A DNA stretch of 63,991 bases, the filler included, from Basidiobolus ranarum (lineage: Eukaryota): the NCBI GenBank assembly GCA_040143965.1. It is 3 parts of 3 records of this genome, joined end to end, with 100 filler letters (N's around TTAATTAATTAA, not from the genome) between each part and the next. Parts side by side here need not be neighbours in the genome. Positions count along the whole stretch, not along the records: positions 21,736 to 43,341 come from JASJQH010007076.1; 2 more parts are not named here. One strand, given 5' to 3'. Both the position numbers and the translations under genes were made by a program. Every line of letters begins with the position of its first letter. Positions within the stretch are counted from its first letter, which is position 1. The notes beneath the pieces were generated by a model. The model searched no databases, was not told the origin of the DNA, and saw only the letters and a program-made list of their open reading frames with translations. Positions 5,262-63,991 of this stretch are shown here, piece after piece.

Positions 5262-6278
5262 TTAACAGATATCGTAAGATGGAGGTAGAGGAATTGAAGT
5301 GGCCTCTGAATCTAAAGGACGGATAGCTACGTGATAGGAAGGTGGCAACTCCACGGTATGATAAGCGGGAAGTTGATCCAACTCCAGTGCATTAACCGAT
5401 GCAACTATCTCAATTGGGATATTCAAGGTAATACAATCTTTCTCACCGGTTTCCTTTTCCCAGTCGACACGAACCACGATATCGTGAGTAACATCGACTA
5501 AGGTATTGATGCAATTTAAGCTGGTGTTCTCCGGCACCTTCATGAGTAATGTCTTGGTATTTTCATCAGTGTTGAACAGAGTAGATGTAGTGCTGAGACG
5601 TTTTACATATTCTGCCACTGATAGGCGAGTTTGATCACTCTTAGAGGGGATGTGAAAGTAAGTATATTCCTTGAGAGCACAAGTGACATTAGTCACCTTC
5701 ACGGTTGGATCAAGTGCTAGTGCAGATATCTGAATATCGAACTTTTCACCGGGTGTGTATTTGGCTGTGGGTAATGCGGCTTTGCAGGCAACTTTATTAG
5801 GAAGGGTCTGATCGAGTTTGTACTCTTCGGAGGGCTCTTCCATCATATCAATGTTACGCTGAATATACACCGGCACCTCCGACTTCAGATCTGAGCTAAT
5901 AAATGTTGTCTCAACCACCGCTTTGAGGGTATACTTGATCTTTCCATACTCACTTCGGAATGATTCGGGTAGATCATTTGGAAGCAAGATTTCAAAGGGG
6001 AACATATGCTGTCCAGAGATTGAAGCAACCTTCTTAGGTTCGAGGAGAGTAATTGTGAGGTCGACAATATTTCGACGAGTCTTTTTCAAAGTACCTGGAA
6101 AAGTCATGGCTAATTTTCCACTGAATTGTAGAAAAATTCTTTTCACTTTTAACAATGCACTGGAGTTCAATGCTACAACGCCACGCAGACTCATCTGTTG
6201 CATGTCTAAACCCATGTAAGGGTTGGCGTAGATGGTGTTGTTCTGAAGGATAACACTTAGTGATGATGATGAAAACAT
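5262..6278 (-). CDS. Alpha-arrestin (arrestin N/C domain) protein with PPxY motifs
   Basis: Contains FPFEILLPNDLPESF..EYGKIKYTLKA and C-terminal LPAY, PPSY, PPSY. A TATAAA-like element lies upstream on the minus strand. Confidence 0.88.
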   Translation of the reverse strand: MFSSSSLSVILQNNTIYANPYMGLDMQQMSLRGVVALNSSALLKVKRIFLQFSGKLAMTFPGTLKKTRRNIVDLTITLLEPKKVASISGQHMFPFEILLPNDLPESFRSEYGKIKYTLKAVVETTFISSDLKSEVPVYIQRNIDMMEEPSEEYKLDQTLPNKVACKAALPTAKYTPGEKFDIQISALALDPTVKVTNVTCALKEYTYFHIPSKSDQTRLSVAEYVKRLSTTSTLFNTDENTKTLLMKVPENTSLNCINTLVDVTHDIVVRVDWEKETGEKDCITLNIPIEIVASVNALELDQLPAYHTVELPPSYHVAIRPLDSEATSIPLPPSYDIC

Positions 6279-6381
6279 CTTGACTTGTGAATTAGTGATG
6301 GTGTATCACTTTGTGGCGACCCTCAGCCTTTATAAATCTCAACGAAACGAAGATTAAGAATTGATTCCATATAAGGGAATG

Positions 6382-6455: not shown

Positions 6456-8177
6456 TGCAATTACAATCACGCTGCGGTGACAAAAAAGAAAACAAATAAA
6501 TCAAATGGATTATATCAACACATTGATATAAAGCCTAGTTCGGTGCTTGGATAGGATCCAATCGATAAAACCAACAGACACATCTCCAGATTGTATGAGA
6601 AGTCCATGAGAAATCCATCGGATAGGATGCACCATCCCTATTTGGGGAATTGAATTTAGATAACCGTTACTACAATGGAAGATCAGGGGAAATGATTAGT
6701 GAATGGCTAGGGTTTCAAATGGAATCCCATTTTCTTGATTTGGTAACAACGTGGTTAGTGAGGTACGCAATAACCAGGTAAAGAACGCGATCCAAGATGT
6801 CAAGATTCGCCCCAAGTTGCGGAATACAGATATATTAGAGATGGTATTGCCAATTTCCACACCCTGCAATTTACTAGCCATCCGTAACAAGTAACCTGTT
6901 TGAAAAATGTTTCAAATACGGTGCCTCTATAATTATCCCACTGATGCCCTGATAATGGGAAGATCTTTTATGTCAAGGAGGGCGATATATATAGTAACAC
7001 ACTGTATATACATTTGGTATAATACTAATGGTGATGTTGCTTCAATTCACTATCTATCTCACAATTGACTATCTGAAAACTGTTCATCGACCGGATCTAT
7101 GGATATTGCATTAGTGACTTATAGCTGAATATGGAGGGCTTGGGAGTCTATCCGCATATCGTATATTAGATATCGCTTCTGGATACGAACGAGAGCCATT
7201 TCAAGTAGATAATGATAAGGGAGAAGCGATTTCTTTAATAACATTGCGCTTTCCTAACTAGATGATCAACAATACGCATCAATGATTTAGAAAAATGAGC
7301 TGGTAGACTTAATTGAACCTACATATATATTACCATTTGATTCTGTCTGACTAAAACATACAGCACATCATTGGGAACCAGATAAGATTTGCGCTAAAAT
7401 TAATTCACTCCTCTATGAGACAGTTATTAAATTGTTGGTTTAGTCTATATTTGTATAATAAGGGATCTGAGACTTGGGTACGAAAATAGCTGAGACTGAT
7501 CCCTGATACCAACGATAACGAAATCATTAATATTGTCACCACATTTGTCGAGTCACCGATCCATAATGATGTCAAGATTAAGTTCGGATCTACCACGTTG
7601 TAGCTACAAACAATTAGATTGTCGTATCCACTTTGAGCGTATGACTGTCTTCCAGCTCCCTTAGCTAAATCCACTCGTATCAGTAGTATTGCCTATCTTC
7701 ACCATCACTAGGATCCGCCTTTTACCTCAACGATAGTGAATGGTCCAGCTATCGTGATTAGACGATTTTCTTCTGCTATCATCAGCTATATGATTGCCTT
7801 TAGCCAATGACTACATTGGGGCCATATCAAGATTAGCTTACTATTTTGGCGTTGAATTGAATGTGTATCATGCGTTATCGAGGAAAACCTATTATCGGGA
7901 AGCTACCAACCAAATGGTGTGCGCTATCGAGTAAGCACTGTATATTATGCGTTATCGCGAGGTACTTGGGGTGATCACAACACTTCAACTAGTAAAATAG
8001 GTTATTGGTGTTACCATTATGGTAATCAAATTTGAATTACACTGACTGCTTTATCAAAGAATGAATCCTCTTTTCAAAGCGCCGCCTATATATAAAGGCA
8101 CATTAGTTGGGTAATGCTCACCGTCCAACTTTCCCATTCATAAGTGAAAGCATATCAATCACAAATAAGTTATCCAA

Positions 8178-9179
8178 ATGTTCTCTTCTTCATCACTTGA
8201 TATTGTTCTTCAGAACAATACGCTCTATCCAAATCCCTATAATCAGGAGGAATCTTCCCAAATGAACTTACAGGGCTGTGTTGTGATCAACACAAGCTCA
8301 GTATTGAAGGTTAAAAAGATATACCTCCAATTCAGTGGGAAATTAGCCGTGCACTTCCCAGCTGCCATCAAAAAAACTCGTCGCAATCTTGCTGAGCAAA
8401 CCATTATACTTCTTGAACAAGATAAACCCACTCCCATCTCTGGCCAGCAGGTTTTCCCCTTTGAAATCCTGCTTCCAAATAATCTACCCGAATCATTCCG
8501 GGGTGAATTTGGAAAGATCAAATATACACTCAAGGCTGTGGCTGAAACGACATTCACTAGCTCTGATTTGAAATCAGAAGTGCCAGTATACGTTCAACGT
8601 AGTGTCGACACGTTGGAGGAGCCCTCAGAAGAGTATTCACTCGAGAAGACACTTCCTAACCAAGTTGCTTGTAAAGTGACATTACCCACCATGGAATACA
8701 CACCTGGCGAGAAGTTTGATATTCAAGTATCAGCGGTAGCACTTGATCCAAGCGTGAGAGTAACCAATGTTACATGTTTTCTCAACGAATACACCTACTT
8801 CCGCATTCCCTCCAAGAACGATCAAACCCGATTGTCAGTGGCAGAATATGTGAAGCGTCTCAGCTTTTCATCCGCTCCCTTCAACGCTGATGAGAATACC
8901 AAAACCTTACTCATGAAGACTCCAGAGAATGCTAGTCTCAGCTGTGTCAATACTCTTGTTGAGATATCTCATGAGTTAAGTCTTCGTGTTTATGTGCAAT
9001 CTGCCGAGGGAGTAAAGAACTGTTTACCAATCATCGTTCCTATCAATGTTGTTTCGTTTGTGACCACACCTGAATTGGATCAACTGCCCATGTACCACGC
9101 CGTGGAGTTACCACCAGCATATACCCATTGTTCGGATGAGTTGATCTCACTCCCTCCAGTATATTGCTCTTCCGAGTAA
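8178..9179 (+). CDS. Alpha-arrestin protein, paralog of 5262-6278
   Basis: Colinear similarity to the first arrestin over its whole length, with LPMY, PPAY and PPVY motifs. TATATAAA lies near 8088. Confidence 0.88.
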   Translation: MFSSSSLDIVLQNNTLYPNPYNQEESSQMNLQGCVVINTSSVLKVKKIYLQFSGKLAVHFPAAIKKTRRNLAEQTIILLEQDKPTPISGQQVFPFEILLPNNLPESFRGEFGKIKYTLKAVAETTFTSSDLKSEVPVYVQRSVDTLEEPSEEYSLEKTLPNQVACKVTLPTMEYTPGEKFDIQVSAVALDPSVRVTNVTCFLNEYTYFRIPSKNDQTRLSVAEYVKRLSFSSAPFNADENTKTLLMKTPENASLSCVNTLVEISHELSLRVYVQSAEGVKNCLPIIVPINVVSFVTTPELDQLPMYHAVELPPAYTHCSDELISLPPVYCSSE

Positions 9180-15001: not shown

Positions 15002-15529
15002 TGTTGATAGCATTACCTTATAGTCATATATAGCTTAGTACTTGGTTATCTTATACTTCACTAAGATATTATCCATTATTCTCAATTAGAATTTACTTGA
15101 ATATATTTACCAACTTAGAAGTTCTCAGATATATAGATTTTTCAAACTTGTGCTAGAAGCTCATACTTTGCACACATGTTCCTGGCACCTTCCTTAAAAC
15201 ATTCTACATATCAGTTTGTATCATCTTAATAAAACTATAAATGTCAACTGAATACTCAATAAATCAATGAGTGAAAACCACCACTTTCTCATATACAAAA
15301 TACACTTGGGCCTGTTGAAATTAGCTTTGCCTAAGCTCCTATATAGTCATATATAGCTTAGTACTTGGTTATTTTATAATTCACTAAGATATTATCCATT
15401 ATTCTCAATTAGAATTTACCTTGAATATTTTGACCAACTTAGAAGTTCTCGGATATATAAATTATACAATCTTGTGCTAGGAGCCCCAAATTTTGCACAC
15501 ATGTTCCTGGGACTTTCCTAAACACATTT
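15002..15529 (+). repeat. Two 3'-truncated copia LTR copies in tandem (about 15002-15290 and 15313-15529)
   Basis: Both begin TGTTGA and match the family LTR (tatagtcatatatagcttagtacttgg...gcacacatgttcctgg). Confidence 0.88.
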
Positions 15530-17230
15530 TAAGGTAGACCCTAGTGTTGAAGTATATTCTCCACCATTATCAGTACATATTTTCTTGATTTTAGTTCCAG
15601 TTTCAGTCTCCACAAGTGTATTAAAATCTCTAAAGATAGAGAGAGCTTCTTCTTTTCTTTCCATAAAGTAGACCCAAGTGCATCTTAGATAATCATCAAT
15701 ATATGTGAATAAATGTCTTTTTCTGGCTAAGGATAAATCTTGCATAGCTCCACAAAAATCTAAATGAATTAGATCCAATATTTTGGCAGATTTGATTAAA
15801 CCAGAGTTCTTGAATAGTTGCCTGACTTGTTTTCCATATATACAACCCCCACAAATTTCCATTTTGGCTGGGGGGTTAATTTGAATTCCAGAAATTAGGC
15901 AATATTTGATCATTTTGCACAAATAATCAAATCCAACATGGCCAAATCACTTATGCCATAATTGAATAGTTTCTTGATTGGAATTACTTAACTTTACATA
16001 CAAACCTCTTGGATTATATGTAAGTTTGCATAAGTTTTGATCCCTTTCTCCCAAAGTTAAATAATACCCATTTTGATCAGTGATGGTGCATCCTAACTTA
16101 TCAAAATTGAATTTTAGCTCTTTTGAGATGGCCTTGCATACAGATGTTAAGCTCTAGGCAGTATCCAAAACATATAGTATATCCTTAAAAGTATACACAT
16201 TCTCTTCAGAAGCTCCAATTAAATTGACTTGAATTGTTCCCATGCCAATAGTATCCAATGTGCAGTCATCTCCCATGAAAACCTTTCTATTTGGGATTTC
16301 TTTGTAATCCACACATCAATGTTTTCCATTTGTGAGTTGTTGTGAGGCTCCAGAATCACTATACCATGTCTGAGAATCCTTTTTGGTAGTCATAGATAGA
16401 GCAGATATAAACAAGTGATTGTCTGTTGTACCACATTTCCAGATTTAGTATGTTTTTCTTCTTTTTGCAATTCTTTTAAAGCAATCTTTGCTTTAATGGT
16501 CAGTTCTTGTACAGTAATCACAGAATGTGTTACTTTTCTTCTTGAAGGCTTTTGACCTATATAGGAAGGTTTCCCATAGCCTATTAAAGCATTTTCTTCA
16601 TTCTTTTAGTTGGATCCCAACTTGCCTGAATCTTCATCCAGAAGTCCACCAAATACATAATTTAAGGCCAAATTTTTGGTTCTTGATTCAAGAGCCATTA
16701 CCAGACTCTGAAACATGTGTGGCAGGCTATTCAGGACTATAACTATGATATCTTGATCAGTAGCAGGTACTCCATTGCATTCCTTTCCATACACTCAAAT
16801 AGCAACTTTATCAATTAGTGAATTGATGTCTTCTCCTGGCTTCATCTTTAAGTTAAGGAATTATCTTCTTAGAAACATCTTATTGGCAGCAGAACTTGTT
16901 TGGTAGCTATCTTCCAAGGCTTTCTGTACCTTCTTGGCAGCTTTAGCTCTTGAACATTGATTTAGCAATTTATCTTTAAAATTAAGACTTGTTATGTTGA
17001 AGGCACTTTGTTCTTTTGTGAACCTGGAATAAAACTTTGGTTTCAGATAGTTTTAAATTGTTAACTTCTCCCACAACAGTGTCCCAAAGTCCTCTTTCTT
17101 GCAGCAGCATTTTCATTTTAATATTCCAAACTTGATAATTGGTTCCATCCAATTTTTTGGAAGAGGGAAAAGTTCCATAGATTGGAGAAGTAGACATTAG
17201 AGAGAGAGTGCAAGTTTGGGGCTCATAACC
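15530..17230 (-). mobile_element. Decayed copia internal region: PBS, gag, protease, GAG-pre-integrase and integrase N-half
   Basis: Contains KLDGTNYQVW.IKMK.LL...GLWD (gag), a CxxC zinc-knuckle remnant, WYSDSGASQ (protease) and C..C..GKQ / LIHLDFCG / FTYIDDY / TDNGGEY (integrase). PBS GGTTATGAGCCC at 17230-17219 abuts the LTR. Confidence 0.92.
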
Positions 17231-17577
17231 TGTTAAGGTATTTGAGAGCCTGTTGGAAGTGGTGTGGAGAGTTAGAGAAATTGGTGGCTTTCACTATTAC
17301 ATTTATGTAGTAGAGAGTTGACATTTATAGTTTTGTAAAGATATAAACAAACTAACATGTAGAATGTGTTAAGAAAGGTCTGAGGAGCATGTTTGCAAAG
17401 TTTGGGGCTTCTAGCATAAGTTTGAAAAAACATATATATGAGAACTTCTAAGTTGGTAAAAATATTGCTAGTAAGTTCCAAATGAGAATAATGAATAATA
17501 TTTTAGTCAAGTATAAGATAACTAAGTACTAAGCTGTATATGAATATATAGGCATTCAGACAATGCTAATTTTAACA
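17231..17577 (-). repeat. Full copia LTR, preceded by a PPT and followed by a PBS (shared LTR)
   Basis: TG...CA ends. CTCTCCCT at 17578-17585 is the PPT on the minus strand, and the PBS lies directly on the other side. Confidence 0.9.
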
Positions 17578-18874: not shown

Positions 18875-21385
18875 CCCTAACAAAAATAAATTCAATTTGA
18901 TCCAGATTGGATCCACCATCCAAAATAGCAAAACTGTCAGAGTACCATCACAATATTGGTGGCTTGCATTCTGCCAGGGATTTTAAAAAGGTGTGATGGC
19001 AGTCTCTTGATGGTATTTTGACAGTGTTCATACATGATAAAATATTGATCCTCAAATTTGGCATGCATCATCCAATATCTGGCTATTTTTGCAAAAATCT
19101 AATTTTTGAATGGCAAATTACTGGGTTTACTGCTCTAGGAATTTGAATTAATATTCATGCCTTTATTTAGATATATTAGGCTTTGTATTCCAGCCATAAT
19201 GAGAATCAAAAAATACAAGAATCTTGTTGTGTTTGGTCTTTACATATGCACATACTTGACTGATCAGACATAACTCAACAACATCAATATACTTTACCAA
19301 CAAACTGATAGTGAGAAAATTGCTAAACATCTAAAATTTTGAATAGCACTGACACTTGGCAAATAGCTGACTCTTGTTACCATTCAGAATGAGAATAAGC
19401 TCATTGATTTTGGCAAATTTCCATAAAGAATTCAGCCAATATATCCCTGACTTGCAGTCAACAAATGTCCTGCCACAAGCAGATATGTCATTGCTTGAAT
19501 AGATTACCCCATGGCTAAAACAATAATACTGCATATCTTGATCTATCTCACCAAGAAGTCTGTCTTGCTGCTTTCCTAAAAATACCATCATATTTTTACA
19601 CAAACAAATTAGTCCAAATTGTAGAGATACTTACTCTGTGTCCATGGATTAGGCTTTGTTGCTGTTATTGTGCTCAAACAGTGCAAAAACCCATGCACAC
19701 ATTGAAATGAGCCCTTTGTTGGCAGGGTAATAAAATCTGTAGTCTCCTTAACCCATTGCTTTACATTCATCACTGATTTTGCTGATATATTGTTAATCAG
19801 ATTAGCATACGGTAATACTAACAATTTCACATGGAGCATCATTTCACCATAGGTGCACTCTGTTGGGAACTCCCAGAATGTATAGCAAGGGCCTATGATC
19901 TCTAAGCATTGTGAAAGATGTAGCAGGGAATGTATTGAATACCAACATAGATTCAGTCTATCTTCTTTAAACCTGTAATAAAGTTTTTCATATCCAACTA
20001 CAAAATCTATGCACAGTCACTGTATCTGCCTAAGATCTACCAATGTAAGTTGATGCTGTAAGAATATGTTGACAATATTGACAAGCAACTCCCAATGTTG
20101 CCAATACTTATTGGGCAGAAATCTTCTCAAAATTCCACTTGAATATATACAAATCCAATACTTCCAGTCTTTGCACTTGAATAAGCTCCTAGATGAGTGG
20201 ATATTGATGGGAGTCCTGGTAAAATATGATGGCATCTTGATGTTATCAAGCACTTTCTTAATTGATTCAAACTTTGATCCTGTCTTGAATGGCTCATTCA
20301 TTTTGAATTTTCCACTATATAGCTGAGTAAGTATTATTTGAATGCTGTTAAATAGTAAGTGCATAGTGCCTAATGGGAAGCTCTGGCTCCAGCTGATCCC
20401 CTTTAGCAATATAATCTTAGGCTTATGGCTAATACCAAGTTTGATGCTAGAATAACAATTTGGTGAATTGATATCAGTGATCATGTTGAAATCTGACTGA
20501 GCTCTTGATGGTAAAATCATGATGTTTAGTGTTGTATTTGGATAGTAGTAATTCATATGCCTGTTAGAGTAAACTCCATTGATTTGACAAAATCTACAGC
20601 AAGATAGTGCATTGTGCCCACAAAAACCTCCAACTTTACTGATGGCAGGATTTTCAACAATACATACAATGATATTAGCTTTAATAAAATATTCACCAAC
20701 TGAACCTCATTAGATTACCATTCAAATTCAGCAATCAAAGGATCCAAGAAGCTATCTATAAGCACTGGTGATTTAGGTCTAGATAGGATGAATAGTTTCA
20801 AAATATTATTACTCTTATACTGTTCAGAAGGAGGAAGATGTAAGTCAATTAAAATTATTGGCCAGCAAGCCGTTCCAATGGTATATTTGTTTACTGAGAA
20901 ACCATCCAGAGCCAATGCAAATGCATGATCATATGTGTCCTCAAAGAAACCTTGATATTTTAGATTCTGGTAGTGATATCCTTCAAGTTTATTGGTAATA
21001 CCATCAGCTTCATGGTGAGTACTATGGTATTTGAGCAATGATCTATATTTGGGTGATTTCATCAAAACTTTAAGGTGGGGAATCAATGGTATGTAAGCCA
21101 AATATGAACAATATTTACCTGATTGAGTGATTGCCAATTGTTTGCAATCAGTACATGACTTCAGGTTTTTCAGATCACTGGTCAGAGCCAAACAACCTTT
21201 TGGAGATGAAGATAGTTTAATTACTGAAGGATTATAAGTCATACAATTGACAAGTGTTTACCACTTGTACCAGGTCTGTGGTAAGCAACTGTTACCAATC
21301 AACTGTGCTAAAAGTGTAAGAAAACCATTTGGATTGAACTCTCCCCTCCTCAATAATCAAAGCTGCTTCCTCTACAGTAAATGCT
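18875..21385 (-). mobile_element. Decayed CACTA/EnSpm-like (CMC, tnp2/Transposase_21-type) DNA transposon
   Basis: Minus-strand fragments read YIPLIPHLK, LALDGF......CWPIILI..HLPP..Y, PKSP..IDSFLDPLIAEF, GHNALSCCRFC, MHLLF and KCKDWK.W. The element terminus begins CCCTAACAAAAA. Confidence 0.75.
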
Positions 21386-21635: not shown

Positions 21636-21735
21636 NNNNNNNNNNNNNNNNNNNNNNNNNNNNNNNNNNNNNNNNNNNNTTAATTAATTAANNNNNNNNN
21701 NNNNNNNNNNNNNNNNNNNNNNNNNNNNNNNNNNN
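21636..21735. other. Artificial 100-nt N spacer with a six-frame stop linker
   Basis: N44-TTAATTAATTAA-N44. Confidence 0.97.
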
Positions 21736-28154: not shown

Positions 28155-28869
28155 ACTTGAAGAAATATTCATAGTAATAATGAGAAGGGTAGCTATTTTT
28201 ATGGACCTAATTCTAGTATTACCACAAAATATCAACAAAGTAATTCATGACCTAGTTAGTAGTATGCAGATTTATAGCAGATATCCAAGTTTTGTTCATC
28301 CATAAGCGGGTTTATGTTGATGGCACGTGCATAGTTTATTTTCATTCATTCATACCAACATATATGTAATACCGATTTTGGGGATTTCAGGGATAGTAAC
28401 ACAAATAGGGAGTTTACACACATTGTCTTATAATTCCGACTTTAGTAATATTTTTTAAGAATCAAGTGATTCATTCAGGAGGAGGATGTTCAACCTATTC
28501 GTCTACACCTACACCTATACAAATGCGAATATTTGAGCTCCCACCATCCATATACATTCCAGTTCTATAGGGATGTATCCATTTGTACTTTGATCACTCT
28601 CCTTTTTTTGTTGGAGGGGATAAAAGTTCTTTTGGTAGGAAACTATGCCCACTACAACAAGTCCTATGAAGTAAGTAAAATCTTCTACTAGATATATTTG
28701 GTCACTTTATTGACCTCTTTAAACCATCAAATATAGTGAAGAAAATCAGTTAAGTCTAAGAAAAAGCAGGAGAAACCAAGTGAAAGGAGTAACTAAAGAA
28801 ATTGAAGGTTCTATGACCGACCAACCCGACAGGGCTGCGGAGATATTTAAGTTTCAAGCCAAAGTTTCC

Positions 28870-31800
28870 ATGTATACTTTAGTCTCCTCTCTACCCAACG
28901 ACGTTTTAAAAAGAATTTCTCAACTATTAGAGTTACAAAAAGATCGATTATCTTTTTGTTTAGTGAATCAAACTTGGTATAAAGCAGGTAACCAAGTTCT
29001 TTGGGAATCTCCTTCGTTTTGGAGTACATCTAGGTTTGCACTATTTTATAAAGTCGTTTCACTTAACTCAAAGTTAGCGGAAAAAGTGAACGAGTTGAAA
29101 CTAGTAATAGAAGAGGTGCCAAGAAATAAGAAACTCTTGTCCGAAGAACCAGCCCAGTTTCTATTACGTAAATCTCCGATTGCCGACCCACATATCGTAC
29201 AAAAATTAGTAGAGTCTTGTAAGAGATTGACGAGACTACATCTTTATGGCTGGAATTTTGACGATAACTCTTTGAAAAAACTACTATCGACCATCAGTGA
29301 TATGAACACACTACATATAGTTGGTTCAAATGGGTTAAAAACCGAAGTCTCTCCACCGTTAATAGAACTTCCGCCGCATTTAGAAACTCTCAGGTTGGAT
29401 GGAGCTTTCTTATTGGAAGATAGTTTTATACAAAACCATACAACAAAGTTTCGTTCACTGGTCACTCTACATATAACCACAAGTAAACTCACTGAAAACG
29501 GGGTAAACTTACTCTTTGAAGAGTTGGTGAATATCCGGGAGATTTACGTTCACAATACCAGTGAATTAAGTGATAGAAATATGGAAACTTTGATCAGTGG
29601 TGGTTCTCCCTTGGAAAGGATCTCTCTTCAAAACTGTGGTATAAGCTTGACTACTTTACAATTATTAGTAGAGAATTGTATTCAGTTGAAAGAGATTCGT
29701 TTGAATTTTCCGACCATAACAACGGACATGAACAAGGATGAAGAGAGCTCTATATTATGGACGATGCCAATATGTAAATATCTGGAGATTTTATCCATTG
29801 AAAATGGATCAATTGACGATGATTTTCTACAAAATATTGGTATGCATTGTAACCATTTAATGGAGATTGAATTAATTCAATGTAAAGGGATCACAGATGA
29901 CGGTATCAAGTGCCTATCCGAGAGTATATCTCAATTTAAGAGGATAAATCTTTCCAAAAATTCACATTTAACTAGTAATTCTTTGATAAATTTATGTACG
30001 AATTCTAGGTATTCTTTACAATTCATTACTTTCGCTTGGAATGGGGATGAGGAGGAGAATTTTACTAGGTTCAATGATTTAGTGGTGCTTTTACGTGACT
30101 CGAAGAATCTTTCGGGATTTCTTCTTCAAGGATATGATCATGTAACCACCACTAAGGAATGGTCCAATCTTATGGATAGATTGAGTGCTCCTAAGCCACC
30201 TTCTTCAACTGCGCTCACAAATTTTACTTCAAATCTGATCAGTATAGCCGAGATAAAAAATCAAGAATCTTCTTTTATCAATGATACATCGGAAGAGATC
30301 CCCCAAACAATCTCTATTGAGGAGATAGAGGATCCGAACATAAATCTTCAATCAAATATCGATGAAACGATTAATCAAGTACAGGAAGAGAAAGAGGAAC
30401 TCATTGATCATGAGGAGGTACAGGGAGAGAAGCAAGAACAAGAGAAAGTTGAGCAGGAACTCATCAATCATGTAGATGTAGAGGAAGATACACAGGTATT
30501 ACCCAATCAAACAGAGGAAGTAGAGAAAGAAGAGCAGGATCACATAGAGCATGTTGAGGAATCAAAAGAGAAATTGCTTGATGAAGTGGAGCAAAAGGGC
30601 CAGGAATTCATTGATCATGCGGAGGAAGAAAAAGAAGAATTACTCGATCAAACGGAGGAAGTGAAGGAGGTAGAGGAAGAAAAACAGGAACTACTTGATG
30701 AAGTGGAGAAGGAGCAGGAATTTGTTGATCAAGTTAAGGTAGAGGATGCGGAGGAGGAGCTCATCGATCAAGAAGAAGTAGGAACACAGAAATTACTCGA
30801 TCAAACAGTGGAAGTAAAGAAAGTAGAGGAAGAAAGGCAGGAGTCATTTGATGAAGAGGAGGGAAAGGAATCGGAATTTATTGATCAAGAGAAGGAAGTA
30901 GAGGAAGAAAAATTGGAATTACTAGTTGAAGTGGAGGGAAGGGAAGAAAAGCCCATTGATCAAGTGGAGAGAGTAGAGAAAGAAGAGCAGAAACCTATCG
31001 ATCACACAGAGAAACTTGAGGAAGAGGAGCAAGAATTCACCGATCATATGGAGGAAGAAACACAGAAATTGATCGATCAAACTGAAGAAGTGAGAGAGGT
31101 AGAGGAAGAAAAACCGGAAGCATTTGACGAAACGGAGGATGGATTTATTAATCAAGTTAGTGTAGAGGAAGAGGACCTCATCGATCCTGCAGAGGAAGAA
31201 AAAGAAAAAGTACTCAATGAGGTAGAGGGAAGGGAGCAGGAATTTGTTGATCAAGTTGAGTTGGAGGAAAAAGAGCAGGACCTCATCGATCACGAAGTAG
31301 AAACGCAGGAATTACTCGATCAAACAGAGGAAGTGAATGAAGTAGAGGAAGAAACCCCGAAATTACTTGATAAAACGGAGAAGGAGCAGGGATTCATTGA
31401 CCAAGTTAAGGTTGAGGAAAGACAGGAGTTATTTGATGAAGAGGAGGGAAAGAAATCGGAATTTATTGATCAAGAGAAGGAAGTAGAGGAAGAACAACTG
31501 GAATTATTAGATGAAGTGGAGGGAAAGGAACAGAAACCCATTGATCAAGTGGAAGGAGTAGAGAAAGAAGACCAGGAGCTTATCGATCACACAGAGAAAC
31601 TTGAGGAAGAGGAACAAGAACTCATCGATCATATGAAGGAAGAAACACAGAAATTGATCGATCAAACTGAAGAAGTGAAAGAGGTAGAAGAAGAAAAACA
31701 AGAAGCACTTGACGAAGTGGAGGAGAAGGAGGACAGATTTGTTAATCAAGTTAATGTAGAGGAAGAGAACCTTATCGATCATGCGGAGGAAGAAAAAGAG

Positions 31801-34800
31801 AAATTACTTAATGAGGTGGAGGGAAGGGAGCAAGAGTTCGTCGATCAGATTGAGTTGGAGGAAAAAGAGCAGGAGCTCATCAATCACGAAATAGAATCAC
31901 AGGAAGTACTCGATCAAACGGAGGAAATGAAGGAGGTAGAGGAACAAGCGCAGGAATTACTCGATGAAGTGGAAGTAAAGGAACAGGAACTCATTGATCA
32001 AGTAGAGGAACAAACACAGAAATTACTCGAGCAAACGGAAGAAGTGAAGAAGGTAGAGGCAGAATTGCTTGATGAAGAGGAGGGAGTAAAGGAAGAACAA
32101 GAGGGATTACTGAAGGAAGAAGTGCAGGGACTCTGCGATCAAGTTGAGAGAGTAGAGGAAGAAACACGTGTATTACTTGATGAAAGGGAGGAGGAGCAGG
32201 AATTCATCGATCACGCAAAGAAAGAAAAAGAGGAATTACTGGAGGAAGGGAAACCACAACTCAATGATCCTGCGGAGGAGGAAACACAGAAACTACTTGA
32301 TCAAGCGGGGGAAGTGAAAGAAGTAGAGGGAAATAAGCCAGAATTGCTCGATGAAGAGGAGAGAGAGGTGCAGGAACTCATCATTCATGCAGAAGAAGAA
32401 AAAGAGGGATTACTCAATGGAGAGGAGGAAAAAGAACAGGAACCCATTGATCATGTTGAGGAAAAAACACCGGAACTACTCAGTCAAACGGAGGAAGTGA
32501 AGAAAGTAGAGGAAGAATACCAGGAATTACTCGATAAAGAGCAAGAGCAGGAATTACTCGATGAAATGAAAGAAAAGGAGCAGGAATTCGATAATCAAGT
32601 AGAGGAAGAAGAAAAACAGGAATTACTTGATAAAGCGGAGAAGAAAGAACAAGAGTTCGTTTATCACGCGGAGGAAGAAACACAGGAATTACTTGATGAA
32701 GCGGAAGAAGAACAAGAGTTCATTTATCACGCAGAGGAAGAAACACCGGAATTACTCGATGAAACAGAGCAGAAATTCATTGATCAAGTTGAGGTAGAAG
32801 AACAGCAATTACTCGATGGAGTGGAGGAAGAGGAGCAAGAATTCGTTTATCATACAGAGGAAGAAACCGATATGTTACATGATGAAGTAGAGGAAAAGAA
32901 GCAACAATTCATTAATCAATTGAAGGAAGAAGAGAAAGAATTTGTTTATCACATGGAGGAAGAAACGCAAGAATCACTGAAGGAAGAGGAGCATGAATTT
33001 TCTTATATGGAGGAAGAAAACTACGAATTACTCGATCAGGTGCAGAGAGAGGAGCAGGAATTTATCTATCATATAAAGGAAGAAACACAGGAATTACTCG
33101 ATGAAGCGAAGGAGAAGGATCACGAATTCATCGATCAAGTGGGGGAAGTAGAGGAAGAAAAGGAGGAATTTTTTTATCACGCACAGGAAGAATCACAGGA
33201 ATTACTTGATGAAGCGGAGGAGAAAGAACAAGAGTTCATTTATCACTCAGAAGAAGAAATACCGGAATTACTCGTTGAAGCAAAGGAGAAGGATCACAAA
33301 TTCATCGATCAAGTGGGGGAAGTAGAGGAAGAATTTATTTATCACACTGAGGAAGATTCACAAGTATTACTCGATGAAGTGGAGGAGAAAGAACAAGAGT
33401 TCATTTATCGCGCAGAGGAAGAAAAGCATAAATCACTTGATAGAGTGGAGGAAGAGGAGCAGAAATTTGTCTATAAACCAGAGGAAAATACACAGGAATT
33501 ACACGATCAAGTGCAGGGAGAGCAGGAATTCATTTATCATGCAGAGGAAGAAACACAAGAATTACTCGATAAAGCGAAAGAGGAAGAACAAGAGTTCATT
33601 TATCACGCAGAAGTAGAAACACCGGAATTACTCGATGAAGCGAAGGAGAAGGATCACGAATTCTTCGATCAAGTAGAGGGAGCAGAAGAAGAAAAGGAGG
33701 AATTCTTTTATTACGCAGAGGGAGAATCACAAGCATTACTCAATGAAGCGGAGGAGAAAGAACAAGAGTTCACTTATTGTGCTGAAGGAGAAAAGCAGAA
33801 ATCACTTGAGGGAGCGGAGGTAGAGGAGAAGGAATTTGTGTATGAAGTAGAGGAAAAGCCACTGGGATTACACGATCAAGTGGAGAGAGAGGAGCAGGAA
33901 TTCATTAATCAAGTGGAGGTAAAAGAGGACGAGAAGGAATTCATTTATTGTGCAGAGGAAGAAATACATGAATTACTCGAAGATGTGGAGAGAGAGAATA
34001 ACGAACTCATCGATCAAGTGGGGATAGAGGAAGAAGTAGAATTCCTTTATCACATAGAAGAAGAAATACAGAAATCACTGGAAATGGAGAAAGAAAGATT
34101 GGAATCTCTAGATGAAATTGAGGAAGAGAAGCAGAAGTTCACTTATCACGCAGTGGAAGAAACACAAGAATTTCTTTATCACATGAAGAAAGAAAAACTA
34201 GGATCACTCAACCAAGCTCAAGACGAGAAGCGAGAATTTGTCTACCAGGTAGAAGAGAAAGATGAACAGGAATTTTTTTATCGCGCAGAGGAAGAGGCAC
34301 AACAATTACTGAATGAAGCTGAGGAAGAACTCGTTTATCGCACTCGCACAGAGGAAGAAACACAGGAATTTCTGTACCATATGGAGAAAAAACAACAAGA
34401 ACTAATCGATGAAATGAAAGAAGAGGAACAAGAATTCGTTTATCATGTGGAAAAAGAAGGAATCAGTGATAATCAACAGTCGATGGAGGAATGTGAATTT
34501 GTTTACAATCCAAGTGAGACGGAGTTTCTTTATGAGCGGCGGAGGGATTCTGTTACTGATGAATGGAATTATCTTGCATCATCCTCGTTGAATAACAAAG
34601 AGGTTATCTACCCAACCGCCAAATCAACAAGGACGGCAAATAATGGAGAGATTCTTACTACTGAATCCAGCGTAGACGACTCAATTCATGGCGATGAGTT
34701 TAAAGCGACTCAAGAGCAACAGCAGGAGAACGAAGAATTTAAGTACTCAGATGAAAAAGATAAGGAAGAGTTCATCTACCATGTTGAATCTAGACCGAGT

Positions 34801-35952
34801 GATGTCTACACAGGGCTTGAAGGGATCGTACCAAGTCACGATACTTGTGAGAAAACAAAGAATGTTAATACTCTGTCTCTTTCAAACAGTCCTACCGCTG
34901 CCTGTGGAGAGACATTTGATTACGCTGAAAGCAAAGTTCAAGAGGATATTGAAGCGAGACCAGAATCAATTGATGAGCCAGAAATCGAAAAGCAAGAGCT
35001 CAACTATCTAGTTGAAATGACAATGAAGGCCAATCATTGCCTTGGATTGAGGAAGACTGGGTTCGATTACCTTAGAACCAATGTGGACTACCCCAAAGAT
35101 GACTTGCCTCTTACGACAGTGAAGGAAGAACCCATTCCAACATTTGTTTATGTTGAGGCTAGAAATGAGACCACTGGTATTTCCTCTCGATTCGATAATC
35201 CTACACAACACTGTGAGAATAGCGAAGTGCCCACTGATCAAGAGCCCAACTATTTACCCAGGCTGTCGAGAAAGGGTATGAATGGAAGATTACTACTTGA
35301 AACCGATCAAAGATCTGCAGGATACTTGACCGATCCAACTCCATTATCTCCTTTCGAAGTCAGCCCATCGTGGGAACGTCAAATATTCAAAGAGGAGCGT
35401 GAGCTTTTTGATCAATTGGACGCCAAAGCCATCATAGAAACAAATGAACCAGAGCTTGAAATGGAAGACGAGTCACTGCGGACTACATATTTCACTCCTT
35501 CTAGAAGCAGAACTGAACATTCCGAAATATTGGATTTCATTCGGGAAGATACATGGTGCACATTTGCATCACAGCAATCACATCAATCACACGACTCACC
35601 CATTGAGGAAAATGAAGTTCAATTGACCGAATCTTCATTCTACACCTCCAGAAGTGATCTCTCCACACCCAGCTCAAGGTCCAGGCAAAAGTCACAGAAA
35701 ACCAAGACTCTGGTGCGATTAGACGTTGAAACTCGTAAACACGGTTCCCAATTACTTCGTGTTACAGAGGTAAGAATATGGTTATTTGGCCATCATGAAT
35801 GTCACTAATCCGTTTACTTATTTTACAAGATGGATCAACCCGATGATGTAGTTGAATGCTTCTGCTATGAATACAATTTAGTTGACCTTATGCCCGGTCT
35901 CCGTCGCTATGTCAAGAAGATGATTGGTAAAAAACAAAGAGGAAAGTCCTGA
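28870..35952 (+). CDS. F-box / RNI-like LRR protein with a ~1400-aa Glu-rich repeat array and a small C-terminal domain (2 exons)
   Basis: F-box SLPNDVLKRI...LSFCLVNQTWY...VLW is followed by LRR units such as LIQCKGITDDGIKCL, in an uninterrupted 7-kb ORF. The intron at 35770-35829 joins a final exon MDQPDDVVECFCYEYNL. The start could instead be 28813. Confidence 0.8.
30360..34540 (+). repeat. Coding imperfect tandem repeat (about 10-14-aa units) with a higher-order ~585-bp duplication
   Basis: Units resemble EEEQELIDQV and EEQEFIYHAEEE. The block starting at 30832 recurs at 31417. Confidence 0.9.
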
Positions 35953-39049: not shown

Positions 39050-39599
39050 TATTAGAATTAGCATTGCCTAAACACCTATATAGTCATATAGAGCTTATTA
39101 TTTAGTTATCCTATATTTCACTAGGATATCACTCACTATTCGTTATTCTCAATTGGAGTTCACTTCAACATTTTTACCCACTTAGAAGTTCTCAGATATA
39201 CAGATCTTGCAAACTTGTGCTAGAAGACCCAAACGTTGCACACATGTTCCTGCAACATTCCTTACCACATTCTACACATTTGTTTGTCTACATTTTGACA
39301 AAACTATAAATAGCAACATTCCTCTCAATATATCAATAACTGAAAACCACCAATTGCTCTAATTCTGTGGTTTTGTCAAGATGTAAGCAAATTAACATGA
39401 GGAATGTGTTACAAAAGGTCCCAGGAATATATGTGCAAAGTTTGGGGCTTCTGGCACAAGTTTGAAAAATATATATATCTGAAAACTTCAAAGTAAATTC
39501 CAATTGAGAATAATGGATAATATCTTATTGAAATATAAGATAACTAAGTACTAAGCTGTATATGACTATATAGGTGTTTAGGCAATGCCAATTTCAACA
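39050..39599. repeat. Two truncated copia LTRs joined tail-to-tail (plus 39050-39366, minus 39367-39599)
   Basis: The first part matches the family LTR forward. The second matches its reverse complement and ends precisely in TTTCAACA. Confidence 0.85.
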
Positions 39600-39783
39600 G
39601 AACCAATTATCAAGTGTGGAAAATCAAAATCATAATGCTGCTGCAAGAAAGGGACTATGGTATACTGTTATAGGAAAAGAAAACAGTGCAAAATTATTTG
39701 AAATCAAAAGTTACTCCAGGTTGAAACAACACCTGTGTTGAAGTTAAAGCTAAATTGCTAATTCAATGCTCAAGAGTCAAAAC

Positions 39784-40065
39784 TGTTGAAAGTCTGGTGA
39801 CTTGTGGTACAAGCAGTAATTCCCAAAGAGGAAAATATGGAGTATGGTGACTGAATCTGAACACAAAGTCTAAGGCCAATCAGTTGCTTGTATAGTTGAA
39901 ATGCCAAAGTATCATACATTGATGGACTAGGTTAAGGTTACCTAGCAATATAGGCATAGCATACAAGGACTGGTAGCTCAGTGGTTAGAGCACCTTGCTA
40001 GAGTGAAGGAGGTCTCAGGTTCAAATCCTGGCCAGACCAATATTTCTCCCTAAATAATTTCAATA
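39784..40065. mobile_element. 282-bp solo-LTR-like insertion of a different family, with 5-bp TSD AAAAC, carrying a tRNA-like cassette
   Basis: Ends are TGTTGAAA...TTTCAATA, with AAAAC at 39779-39783 and 40066-40070. Removing the insert restores colinearity with the gag copy near 16910-16960. Confidence 0.8.
39967..40039 (+). ncRNA. tRNA-like sequence (degenerate, anticodon position reads AGA) inside the LTR-like insertion
   Basis: GGACTGGTAGCTCAGTGGTTAGAGCACCTTGCTAGAGTGAAGGAGGTCTCAGGTTCAAATCCTGGCCAGACCA is 73 nt with an A box, a B box and intact D and T arms. The acceptor and anticodon stems each have one mismatch. Confidence 0.8.
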
Positions 40066-41158
40066 AAAACCACTAAGAAGGTATGGAAAGCCTTGGAAGA
40101 CACCTACCAAACAAACTCTCCTACCAATAAGATCTTTTTAGAAAGACAATTCTTTAACTTAAATATAAAGCCAGGAGAAGACATTAAATATCCAAATAAC
40201 AAAGTCACTATTTTAGTGGATGAAAAGCAATTCATTGAAGTACCTACTATTTATCAGGACATTGTAGTTACATTCCTGGATAGCTGGCTACATGAGTTTC
40301 AGTGCCTAGTTGTTGCTCTAGAATCAAGAACTGACAATTTTACCTTAAATTGTGTATTTGTCAGACTCCTGTAAAAGAATTGGAAAAGAAGAAAAATATA
40401 CAAAATCTGTAAATGTGGTTATAATAGAAGATCACTTGCTCATATCTGCTCTATCTATGACTACTAATAGGGATCCTCAGATATGGTATATTGTCACTGT
40501 AGCATCTCAACATTTTATAAATATAAGATGTTTGCTTGTGGATTATCAAGAAATCCTAATTAGAAATGTTTCATAGGAGATGGCCTTACACAGAATGCCC
40601 TTTGAATGGCATCAACTCAAACCAATTTAACTGGTGCTTCTGAGGACAAAGTGTATACTGTTAAAAGCATACTACATGTTCCAGATATTGCCAAGAATTT
40701 GATATCTATATGCAAGGCCACCTAAGAAGGGCTAGGATTTATTTTGATAAGTCAGAATGCACCAACACTGATGAAAATGGGAGATATTTACCTTCAGGAG
40801 AAAAGGATTGGAACTTATACAAGTTTACATATAATCCAAGGGGTTTATGTACAAATATAAGTTGTTCCAATCAAGAAAATATTTGATTATGGCAAAGAGG
40901 TTGGGCTGTATATGACTTAATGATTTGTGCAAAATGATCAAAAATTGCCTAATTTCTGGAATTCAAATTATCCCCTCCAACTAAAATGGATATTTGTGAG
41001 GGCTTGTATATTGAAAAAAGCCAGGCAACTGTTCAAGAGCTGTGGCTTAATCAAATCTGTTAAAAAACCAGATGTAATTCATTGAGATTTGTGTGGACCT
41101 ATGAAAAATTTATCTTTAGATGGAAATGGTACTCAATCACATTTGTTGCTGCTTATAA

Positions 41159-41506
41159 TGTTGAAGTATTTAAGAGCCTGTTGGAAGTGGCTTGGAGAAT
41201 TAGAGGAATTGGTGGTTTTCACTTGTTGATTTATTGAGTAGAAAGTTGACTTTTATAGTTTTGTCAAGATGTAAACAAGCTAACATGTAGAATATGTTAA
41301 GGAAGGTCCCAGGAACATGTGCGCAAAGTTTGAGGCTTCTAGCACAAGTTTGAAAAATCTATATATCTGAGAACTTCTAAGTTGGTGTCAATATTCTAAG
41401 TAAATTCCGATTGAGAATAATTGGTAATCTCTTAGTGAAATATAAGATAACTGAATACTAAGCTATATATGACTATATAGGTGTTTAGGCAATGCTAATT
41501 TCAACA
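41159..41506 (-). repeat. Full-length copia LTR, inverted relative to the adjacent internal fragment
   Basis: Runs TGTTGAAG...TTTCAACA and matches 17231-17577 and 1286-1614. The flanks TATAA and CCATT do not form a TSD. Confidence 0.9.
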
Positions 41507-42042: not shown

Positions 42043-43341
42043 TTAACAGACTGGAACATTTACCGCCAAGCCACCTTGACTGGTTTCCTTATATTTGCTT
42101 TGCATATCCAAGCCAGTTTGTCTCATACTCTCAATAACTTGGTCGAGAGTTACACGATGAAGACCATCACCATTCAGCGCTAACTGGGCTGCGGTGACGG
42201 CCTTCACAGCACCAAGAGCATTTCTTTCGATGCAAGGAATTTGTACAAGTCCATCGATAGGATCACAGGTTAATCCCAAGTTATGTTCCATACCAATCTC
42301 TGCTGCATTTTCTACTTGCTCAACTGTACCGCCCATAACTGCGGCAAAACCTGCGGCAGACATCGAGCAGGCAACACCAACTTCTCCTTGACAACCGACT
42401 TCTGCGGCACTGATACTAGCGCCTCTCTTGTACAACATACCAATGGCTGCTGAGGTCAATAAGAATTCCATAACATCCTTCTCTGGGTCATCAGATATGA
42501 ATTCCAGATAGTACTTCAGTACAGCGGGAATGACACCACTGGCACCGTTAGTTGGTGCGGTAACTACACGACCTCCAGCAGCATTTTCTTCGTTCACCGC
42601 AATGGCATAGACTGATAGATAGTCTAAAGCTGGAAGAGATAAGCGCTTTGGTGTTCTACGGGGAAGATACACTCTACTTAATCCAGTTTCAGATGTACTA
42701 TTTTCGGTGTTTGCGGTAAGAGATTCCTCTTTGCTTGGCTCGGATGCTATCGATGAGGAACTATATCCAACGGAGTTGTTATTATAAAGACCGCGAAGGA
42801 GCTTTTTATAGAGACTAGGTGCTCTTCTCTTGGCGGACAATCTTCCAGGAAGATACTCTTCGTTACTGAGGCAACCATTTTTGATTGAGAAGTCCATTGT
42901 ATTCCAGATGGCAAACAACTGAGCTTTGATTTCTTCAGGTGTTCTCCATTGAAGTTCGTTCTCATAAACGACTTGGGCAACCGTCATGTTTTGCTTGCGA
43001 CATACTTCGAGCAAATCCTCCGCATTGGTAAAAGGTAATGCAGCAATAACCAAATCCTGGTTCTTACGCTCGTCATCACCAGCTACCATAGAAGAAGATT
43101 CTTTAACATCTTTGAAGTAAACGTTTTGTCCATGAGCAACGTGAGTAGCTTCGTTAACTACGAAACCTCCACCAATTGAGAAATACTCGTTTGTCGCAAG
43201 CATATCACCATTCTCGTCGAAAACAGTGAAGCGCATTCCATTAGGATGTTGAGGGAGTGACTCGAAATAATGGAAAACTAATTGGTTTGTAGGGTCGATG
43301 TTGAGATTTTGAGTACCATTAATGGCGGTGGTTTTGTTCTC
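42043..43341 (-). CDS. sdaA: Fe-S-dependent L-serine dehydratase (SdaA-type), 5'-truncated by the gap
   Basis: Motifs [66 protein letters not shown] and [11 protein letters not shown]. The frame is open up to the N run. Confidence 0.93.
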
Positions 43342-43441
43342 NNNNNNNNNNNNNNNNNNNNNNNNNNNNNNNNNNNNNNNNNNNNTTAATTAATTAANNN
43401 NNNNNNNNNNNNNNNNNNNNNNNNNNNNNNNNNNNNNNNNN
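43342..43441. other. Artificial 100-nt N spacer with a six-frame stop linker
   Basis: N44-TTAATTAATTAA-N44. Confidence 0.97.
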
Positions 43442-48331: not shown

Positions 48332-49810
48332 ATGACCATGACTCTTTATTCTAACCCTGAAAACAAACCTTGGTTAATTTTGAAGTTCGGCGGAACCAGT
48401 GTTGGAAAGTTCTTGGACCAAATCACTAATGTTATCATTAAGGGTGCTGTCGAGACCCATCGTGTTGTAGTTGTTTGCTCAGCTAGAAGCGGTGACACGA
48501 AATCCAAAGGAACCACCAGCAGACTGATCCGTGCTGCCGAGGAGGTTCTTGTTTCGGGTTCTAAGGGTCATCTTGAAATTGTGGCTGACATTTTGGAGGA
48601 CCATGTTGAAGCTGCCAATGCAGTCATCCAGAATGTGGAGATTCGTCAACAAGTAATCAAGGACTTGTCTGACGAATGCTCCAGACTTAAGGTATTCTTA
48701 GAGGCTGCCGAGGTTATTGACGAAGTCTCTCCTAGGTCTAAGGATATCATTATTGGCTGTGGTGAGAAACTAGCTTGTATCTTTGTTGCAGCCGCCTTAA
48801 GAGACAAGAGCGTTGACGCCCAATATGTCTCTTTGGAGAGAGTTGTCGATCAGCATTTCGAGGCAGGAAAGCTTGATCAAACTTTCTATGACTATCTCGC
48901 CGAAAGGTTCGCCTCCGAGGTGGCCCAGTGTGAAAACAGAGTACCCGTCGTTACGGGGTATTTTGGCTCCGTTCCAGGCGGTATTTTGCATAGTATTGGT
49001 AGAGGTTACACTGACCTTACCGCCGCATTATGCGCTGTTGGCCTTCGTGCTGATGAGTTGCAGGTATGGAAAGAGGTGGATGGTATCTTTACTGCTGATC
49101 CTCGTAAAGTGCCTACAGCACGTTTGTTGACTATCATCACACCCGAAGAAGCAGCTGAGTTGACGTACTACGTGTCGGAGGTCATCCACCCTTTCACCAT
49201 GGAACAAGTCATCCGTGCGCAGATTCCCATTCGTATTAAAAATGTACAGAATCCTTCAGGCAATGGAACCATCATCTTCCCTGATGGTGCAGCTAGTAAT
49301 AGAGGAAGTCCACCTCCAGCTCCTCGATTCTTACTAGAAAATGGGTATCATCTGGATCTGTCTAGAAGACATCCCACTGCCGTCACCATCAAAGATAACG
49401 TTATTGTTTTGAACGTTCACTCCAATAGAAAGTCCGTTTCGCATGGTTTCTTCGCCAACATCTTCTCCATACTGGATAGATACGGGATTATTGTCGATCT
49501 TATTTCAACCAGTGAAGTTCATGTGTCTATGGCTTTGGGTGCTAATATTCTTGAGCGCAGTCTTGAAGGCGCTCTCAATGAACTTGGAAAACTTGGTCGA
49601 GTTGATGTCATCAAAAACATGGCTATCTTAAGCTTGGTAGGTAAACAAATGCGCAACATGGTGGGTATATCTGGCTTGATGTTTACCACACTGGCGGAGG
49701 CTCAAGTGAACATTGAAATGATCTCGCAAGGAGCTTCGGAAATCAACATTTCATGTGTTATAGAAGAAAGCAAGTCAGAAGACGCACTTCGTGCAATAAA
49801 CAATACATAA
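48332..49810 (+). CDS. HOM3: Aspartokinase
   Basis: Motifs LKFGGTSVG, GRGYTDL, WKEVDGIFTADPRKVP and SEVIHPFTM, plus two ACT domains (VDLISTSEVHVS and NIEMISQGASEINISCVI). Confidence 0.96.
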   Translation: MTMTLYSNPENKPWLILKFGGTSVGKFLDQITNVIIKGAVETHRVVVVCSARSGDTKSKGTTSRLIRAAEEVLVSGSKGHLEIVADILEDHVEAANAVIQNVEIRQQVIKDLSDECSRLKVFLEAAEVIDEVSPRSKDIIIGCGEKLACIFVAAALRDKSVDAQYVSLERVVDQHFEAGKLDQTFYDYLAERFASEVAQCENRVPVVTGYFGSVPGGILHSIGRGYTDLTAALCAVGLRADELQVWKEVDGIFTADPRKVPTARLLTIITPEEAAELTYYVSEVIHPFTMEQVIRAQIPIRIKNVQNPSGNGTIIFPDGAASNRGSPPPAPRFLLENGYHLDLSRRHPTAVTIKDNVIVLNVHSNRKSVSHGFFANIFSILDRYGIIVDLISTSEVHVSMALGANILERSLEGALNELGKLGRVDVIKNMAILSLVGKQMRNMVGISGLMFTTLAEAQVNIEMISQGASEINISCVIEESKSEDALRAINNT

Positions 49811-63555: not shown

Positions 63556-63991
63556 TCGTTTCCCTTTGTCTCAACGGAATGTGGCACGTCTGTAGCCCAA
63601 TCCATAAGGGCCATGAGGGCTTGTCTTGATCCCTTTACTACCCGGCTAACTCAAGGGTAACCAGACAGTTGGAAGAAGCTCCGGTAACTGTCTGGGGGGG
63701 TTTTGTTCGTTAGCGCACTTAAGCTGAGATTTCACAACACGAATTGTTTATTTTGGGTTTCAGTCTTGCGACAGTACTCCCCAGGTGGAGTGTTAGGGGG
63801 TTCCCTGGGCGATTTCTTATTGCAAAGCCGATCGGGGCAGCATGAAATAATCGCCAACACTCATCGTTTAGGGTGTGGACTAATAGGGTATCTAATCCTT
63901 TTCGCTACCCACACTTTCGTATCTGAGCGTCAGTGTTTAGTTAGAAAGAAGCCTTCGCCTCGGGGGTTCCTAGAAAATTCTATGCATTTTA
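63556..63991 (-). rRNA. rns: Mitochondrial-type small-subunit rRNA fragment with an internal deletion (probable NUMT), running off the window edge
   Basis: The minus strand shows GGATTAGATACCC, GGGGAGTAC..TCGCAAG, TCGTGTTGTGAAAT, AAGACAAGCCCTCATGGCCCTTA and GGGCTACAGACGTGCCACA. Confidence 0.78.

Follow-up and report, generated by a model that had tools for sequence, protein, structure and literature searches.

A probable Helenus-type solo long terminal repeat with a tRNA-like module inside a decayed copia element of Basidiobolus ranarum

How did a complete tRNA-like cloverleaf come to lie within a short insert that interrupts the gag region of a copia-type retrotransposon in the fungus Basidiobolus ranarum, and what kind of mobile DNA is that insert? 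The locus belongs to a window of 63,991 nucleotides, filler included, that joins three parts of assembly GCA_040143965.1; the part concerned comes from JASJQH010007076.1 and occupies positions 21,736 to 43,341. The insert spans 282 bp on the plus strand (39784-40065), starts with TGTTGAAA and ends with TTTCAATA. We consider it likely that this is the solo long terminal repeat (LTR) of a non-autonomous LTR element of the Helenus type (“TRIMp3”, Kojima), with a tRNA-derived RNA polymerase III (Pol III) promoter in the LTR, a likening that goes by described features. Helenus elements are miniature terminal-repeat retrotransposons (TRIMs) that carry tRNA-derived sequence in their LTRs (Kojima 2024, PMC10886601).

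Evidence for integration comes from a further, minus-strand copy of this copia at about 17145-15689, which is 73–78% identical to the interrupted element and lacks the insert. Each flank of the filled site was aligned locally to this paralog on its own: the left-flank alignment stops at 16940, the right-flank alignment begins at 16944, and both copies of AAAAC that border the insert (39779-39783 on the left, 40066-40070 on the right) map to a single AAAGC at 16944-16940, i.e., the unduplicated target (empty site 16940-16944, minus strand). Since the paralog has one AAAGC and no insert, the insertion is genuine and carries a 5-bp target-site duplication (TSD), and the copia gag frame continues over the junction once 287 bp are removed. 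The 282-bp insert is thus an integration that duplicated 5 bp of its target. An earlier sequence-only reading of this locus had described a 282-bp insert with near-perfect terminal inverted repeats and a 5-bp AAAAC TSD in copia gag. The insert-free paralog confirms this, together with a Pfam match of the piece after the insert (40066-40371) to Retrotran_gag_2, a copia-type gag profile (E 1.6e-15, profile positions 60-159 of 172, from the first residue). The Pfam score is that of the downstream piece alone; the upstream part of gag contains stop codons, and these stops before the insert indicate that the host copia is dead.

What kind of element left this footprint? The insert has TG...TA termini, one change away from TG...CA, which form inverted repeats complementary at seven of eight positions. 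Inverted-repeat ends beside a TSD would also suit a miniature inverted-repeat transposable element (MITE) with 8-bp terminal inverted repeats, a 5-bp TSD and a captured tRNA gene. We regard this origin as very improbable: the inverted repeat is only 8 bp long, with none of at least 10 nt found in the insert by a repeat search, and the ends match those of the resident copia LTR, including three further 3′ bases that lie beyond the inverted repeat. No cut-and-paste superfamily is known to combine TGTTG ends with 5-bp TSDs. The repeat search also found no LTR-like internal repeats inside the insert (longest direct repeat, 12 nt), which indicates that the insert represents one LTR rather than a complete miniature element; a full two-LTR element of the SMART-like kind (~290 bp) within the 282 bp is ruled out on the same ground.

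If the insert is a single LTR, which element could have moved it? The resident copia family offers a comparison, as one of its LTRs stands alone at 1286-1614 (plus strand) between two copies of TTATT (1281-1285 and 1615-1619), which documents both 5-bp TSDs on integration and solo LTRs for this family. The body of the insert is unrelated to the resident LTR: the best local alignments score 18–22, values that 54 to 218 of 300 shuffles also reached, and we rejected a remote similarity because these scores lie in the shuffle range. The ends tell a different story. At the 5′ end, the insert (TGTTGAAAGT...) and the resident LTR (TGTTGAAG... or TGTTAAAC...) agree at 6–8 of 12 positions, a match equalled at 815 of 127518 window positions, while at the 3′ end (...ATAATTTCAATA in the insert, ...CTAATTTCAACA in the resident LTR) they agree at 9–10 of 12, equalled at 25 of 127518 positions, a count that takes in the true LTR ends. 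Multiplied, these rates give a joint chance of ~1e-6 that both matches would land exactly on the TSD-defined ends. By this comparison, the insert ends resemble resident copia LTR ends far beyond chance; the earlier claim that the insert is unrelated to the resident LTR family except at its ends is thereby confirmed by both the shuffle test and the end-match rates. The insert and the resident LTR also have in common three additional bases on the 3′ side (AAT before TTTCAA), outside the inverted repeat. These favor the plus orientation, and consequently a tRNA-like part in sense, near the 3′ end of the LTR. A copia-type element with shared LTR ends probably moved the insert in trans.

The tRNA-like part itself is a 73-nt cloverleaf with anticodon AGA (39967-40039, plus strand), called as tRNA-Ser(aga) by ARAGORN and matched by the Rfam tRNA model RF00005 at 55.3 bits (gathering score 29; E 3.4e-9 over the window) across the full model, positions 1-71. 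All four arms are present in the Rfam alignment, with a variable loop of 5 nt and intact A and B boxes. The A box (TAGCTCAGTGG, 39974-39984, plus strand) and the B box (GGTTCAAATCC, 40018-40028, plus strand), both identified from the sequence and the Rfam alignment, respectively fit TRGCY...YGG and include GGTTC, the two motifs described as conserved in Helenus (PMC10886601). The cloverleaf reads in sense and is separated from the left end of the insert by 183 bp and from its right end by 26 bp. Its minimum-energy fold is the cloverleaf, the fold energy compared with shuffles being uninformative (z = -0.28), and no other tRNA relics were found in the 64-kb window.

Could this be a working tRNA gene, carried by a mobile element and adding to the host tRNA supply? 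Its score comes near that of an ordinary tRNA of the same window, a tRNA-Arg(TCG) at 57.0 bits on the Rfam model, and a few fungal Helenus may encode a usable tRNA-Thr or tRNA-His (PMC10886601). The details of the cloverleaf nevertheless make this scarcely credible. Serine tRNAs (class II) have a long extra arm, whereas here an AGA (Ser) anticodon sits on a body with a 5-nt variable loop and no such arm, which means that this is not a proper serine tRNA. Two stem pairs are non-standard, 3-70 in the acceptor stem (A.A) and 31-39 in the anticodon stem (G.G), and no run of at least four T follows the tRNA-like part for 95 nt, compared with a TTTT 4 nt past the end of the tRNA-Arg. The tRNA-like part is therefore very unlikely to work as a tRNA-Ser, and the same suspicion, voiced from the clash between anticodon and variable loop when the locus was first read, is upheld by the 5-nt loop and the two broken pairs.

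The first T-run after the tRNA-like part is TTTTT at 40135-40139 (plus strand, T-run scan), which lies within host gag and is the likely Pol III stop; at this locus, the tRNA-like part could start a ~170-nt Pol III transcript that would end at these five T. The plus strand of the insert has no TTTT, and the ARAGORN call, the Rfam match and the T-run scan together bear out the first description of the module as a 73-nt cloverleaf with A and B boxes, 26 bp from the right end and with no TTTT before that end.

A life cycle can be proposed from the logic of Helenus and of Cassandra, a plant element considered below, combined with the anatomy of the insert; its observed part consists of the footprint of integration, the likeness of the ends and the promoter-bearing cloverleaf. 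Pol III, drawn in by the A and B boxes, would begin transcription at the first base of the tRNA-like part in the 5′ LTR. The transcript would then run through the last 26 nt of that LTR, a primer-binding site (PBS), a short interior, a polypurine tract (PPT) and a 3′ LTR free of four-T runs, and would stop at a T-run past the LTR, as transcripts of short interspersed nuclear elements (SINEs) do. The 99 nt from the tRNA-like part to the LTR end would provide the terminal redundancy for strand transfer. Copia-type proteins acting in trans would package and reverse-transcribe this RNA and integrate the DNA, the copia integrase recognizing the TGTTGAA...AATTTCAAyA ends and making the 5-bp target duplication. 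Finally, recombination between the two LTRs would delete the interior and leave the solo LTR.

How well does a Helenus-type solo LTR hold up? The features that a single copy allows one to test, i.e., a true insertion with a 5-bp TSD, copia-like ends and a cloverleaf with intact A and B boxes, agree with it, and the core inference fits. Several observations weigh against it. One copy of the element is known, and it is the sole copy within the 64-kb window, where no partner LTR, PBS or PPT was seen for the insert. The 3′ end reads TA instead of the canonical CA, most simply the result of a later C-to-T change. Absence of TTTT is common, with 305 of 1261 sampled 282-bp windows (24%) also lacking it, such that a TTTT-free LTR is compatible with Pol III read-through but is not evidence for it. 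The tRNA-like part is bracketed by a 6-bp direct repeat, CAATAT (39946-39951 and 40038-40043), which leaves room for the tRNA module having entered this copy alone. Lastly, a 21-nt pattern from the anticodon arm had no matches in metagenome contigs and none in prokaryote genome contigs, i.e., no relatives; the scanned public collections contain little or no fungal DNA, so these blank scans are uninformative on host copy number. A second pattern, 20 nt across the 3′ end of the tRNA-like part, gave two metagenome matches that we took as chance, both lying in unrelated sequence that looks coding and drew no tRNA call.

Since a solo LTR alone was seen, its parent may have been of any size, and the insert could instead be the solo LTR of an ordinary retrotransposon, long or autonomous and transcribed by Pol II, in which the tRNA-like part would be a passenger or a chromatin- or insulator-type module rather than a promoter. 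“Not a few” Repbase LTRs have tRNA-like parts, and only some of these belong to TRIMs (PMC10886601). We judge this origin unlikely: a complete cloverleaf in sense, with perfect A and B boxes near the LTR 3′ end, suits a Pol III start that reads into the interior, as does an LTR without a run of at least four T on that strand, and neither point is decisive.

The CAATAT repeat bears on a further alternative, in which a tRNA retrocopy or a SINE entered this one, previously tRNA-less solo LTR, or its immediate parent only. The repeat flanks the tRNA-like part as a 6-bp duplication would, and insertion of a SINE into an LTR has been proposed as the origin of such elements (PMC10886601). However, we estimate at ~10% the chance that, in AT-rich DNA, a 6-bp match falls within ~20 bp of two boundaries. 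The bracketed piece consists of a 15-nt leader plus the cloverleaf and lacks both a SINE body and an A-rich or repeat tail, and the outer TSD and ends are intact. We find such a private event quite improbable, and retain the Helenus-type solo LTR as the likely reading.

Seen in this light, the inference first drawn from the sequence, that of an LTR element with a tRNA promoter, possibly mobilized by copia, fits the TSD, the ends and the cloverleaf, but the kind of element is not new, as Helenus is published. With the kind already described, what is probably new is the host lineage, together with the end similarity to a candidate copia helper. Fungal hosts listed for Helenus are Pucciniales together with Agaricus, Coprinopsis and Amylostereum (PMC10886601); Zoopagomycota and Mucoromycota do not occur in the main text of that paper, and the Basidiobolus lineage is absent from both its host table and its main text. 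The Helenus screen started from Repbase LTRs and proceeded to related genomes (PMC10886601), and other fungal phyla were thus not systematically covered. A limited literature search returned no report from Basidiobolus, or from other early-diverging fungi, of Helenus, TRIMp3 or LTRs that bear a tRNA; two later papers name Helenus in citations only. Elsewhere in the window, an aspartokinase (48332-49807) shares 87% identity with the Basidiobolus ranarum protein and 84% with its B. meristosporus counterpart, followed by Kickxellomycotina at ~71%, which places the source of the window among Basidiobolus-like fungi.

Extending from this locus, we can ask if Basidiobolus-type fungi (early-diverging, Zoopagomycota in the broad sense) possess a distinct family of LTR elements with tRNA promoters, separate in origin from the Helenus of rusts and mushrooms and, unlike the published cases, with ends that copy those of an identifiable resident copia family. 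We rate this as a tentative proposal, somewhat short of an even chance. If a genome-wide search confirms it, TRIMp3/Helenus would extend beyond Basidiomycota into early-diverging fungi, in support of a repeated origin of the design, and a non-autonomous element and its likely copia helper would become pairable by their LTR ends. There would also be consequences for annotation. In rust genomes, dozens to hundreds of false tRNA-Ser-AGA or Thr-AGT calls are Helenus LTRs (Table 2 in PMC10886601), the Ser-AGA calls being reported for Puccinia striiformis, Uromyces viciae-fabae and Cronartium ribicola (PMC10886601). Should a separate Basidiobolus family exist, part of the predicted “tRNA-Ser-AGA” genes in these genomes would likewise be LTRs; such LTRs inflate tRNA gene counts, give false tRNA-Ser calls and scatter potential Pol III start sites. 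As a single copy, the insert is an example of something already described and not a new principle.

The element that received the insert is itself a relic. Its internal region (39600-41158, plus strand) is decayed, internally deleted and interrupted by the insert, as judged from the Pfam gag match, the many stops in the open reading frame list and the paralog, and without the LTRs comprises ~1.65 kb of gag followed by protease- and integrase-like remnants with stops. LTR comparison places its 3′ LTR at 41159-41506 (TGTTGAAG...AATTTCAACA, plus strand) and a partial 5′ LTR at 39370-39599 (plus strand, ending ...AATTTCAACA), ahead of which an inverted LTR copy occupies 39056-39366; an inverted LTR thus adjoins the truncated 5′ LTR across 39056-39599. 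Resident copia LTRs are repeatedly inverted, head-to-head or nested (1202-1877, 39056-39599, 15014-17577): the solo LTR at 1286-1614 is nested in an inverted copy of the same LTR (1202-1877), and in the second copia copy the LTR at 17231-17577 is inverted relative to the interior. Both internal copies have a common deletion that leaves gag and an integrase remnant, ~1.6 kb in all, which suggests that the family multiplied in the form of a non-autonomous derivative. No autonomous copia with reverse transcriptase was found in the 64-kb window.

The rest of the window holds several unrelated features. On the minus strand, 20017-21257 contains two adjacent open frames, the upstream one matching Pfam Transposase_21 (tnp2 family, E 2.6e-8), probably the remnant of a large DNA transposon; masked sequence comes next, at 21636-21735. 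A single open frame of 2361 codons (28723-35808, plus strand) has a long glutamate-rich repeat array in its middle, with strong GC and AT skew at 30–34 kb, and for its first 526 residues Pfam gave nothing at E 0.001 or better. Divergent paralogous frames of ~340 codons at 5262-6305 (minus strand) and 8169-9179 (plus strand) look arrestin-like by eye and end in PPxY-like motifs. At 63719-63991 (minus strand), cut by the window end, a bacterial-type small-subunit rRNA model matches at 129.9 bits across model positions 682-1533, interrupted by large gaps; by eye this resembles a degenerate mitochondrial-type rRNA piece, and as it adjoins nuclear genes it may be mitochondrial DNA copied into the nucleus. 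Runs of 44 N occur at 21636-21679, 21692-21735, 43342-43385 and 43398-43441, as two pairs each split by 12 bases, and the second pair interrupts an L-serine-dehydratase-like frame (42043-43389) in its N-terminal part.

How, then, does the insert compare with known systems that combine small-RNA genes and mobile DNA? Like tRNA-derived SINEs (SINE2), it has a tRNA-derived A- and B-box promoter on short non-coding mobile DNA, with a transcript expected to end in the flank. SINEs, in contrast, have their tRNA head at the 5′ end and a tail that is A-rich or of the type found in long interspersed nuclear elements (LINEs), and move by target-primed reverse transcription, whereas the insert has TG...TA inverted-repeat ends like the resident copia LTR and a copia-typical 5-bp TSD. 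Assignment to SINE2 was accordingly rejected, as the tRNA-like part begins at position 184 of 282 and the 3′ end (...AATTTCAATA) has no tail.

Closer parallels are found among LTR elements with Pol III modules. Ajax, which had been named in the sequence-only reading as a tRNA-bearing plant element, is in fact a TRIM with a partial 5S rRNA promoter and 5-bp TSDs from two nemertean worms, and the tRNA-bearing group is Helenus (PMC10886601). Ajax and the insert have in common an LTR, a Pol III promoter module and 5-bp TSDs, and differ in the module, which is 5S-derived in the former and tRNA-like in the latter. Cassandra, a plant-only TRIM, carries 5S rRNA in its LTRs, with a conserved Pol III terminator in the LTR that yields an 18-nt terminal redundancy (PMC10886601). 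Here again, the LTR of a non-autonomous element houses a small-RNA gene whose Pol III promoter is internal, but Cassandra combines 5S with a terminator in the LTR, while the insert combines a tRNA-like part with an LTR lacking any run of at least four T.

Helenus itself is described from fungi, animals and one plant, as non-coding TRIMs in which two LTRs surround only a PBS and a PPT, under ~1000 bp in total (311–1263 bp observed), and its Pol III transcription is described as unvalidated (PMC10886601). Fungal Helenus have 5-bp TSDs and depend on Copia-superfamily elements, with PBSs of Copia type and, in one case, internal sequence of that type as well; they often survive only as solo LTRs with TSDs, and the anticodon of Helenus usually disagrees with the tRNA body (PMC10886601). 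Apart from its host, the insert differs in that it is known as one solo copy, with the paired LTRs, PBS and PPT that define a TRIM unseen, and in that its ends resemble a resident copia LTR, unlike LTR-1_PTrit and Copia-9_PGr, which are described as lacking LTR similarity (PMC10886601). The likenesses are a tRNA-like part with conserved A and B boxes in an LTR (matched by Rfam over the full model), a 5-bp TSD, survival as a solo LTR and a disagreement between anticodon and tRNA body; a link to Copia is suggested indirectly by the resident-like ends and by the same TSD length. Taken together, the insert shows every listed feature of fungal Helenus that a single solo copy can show.

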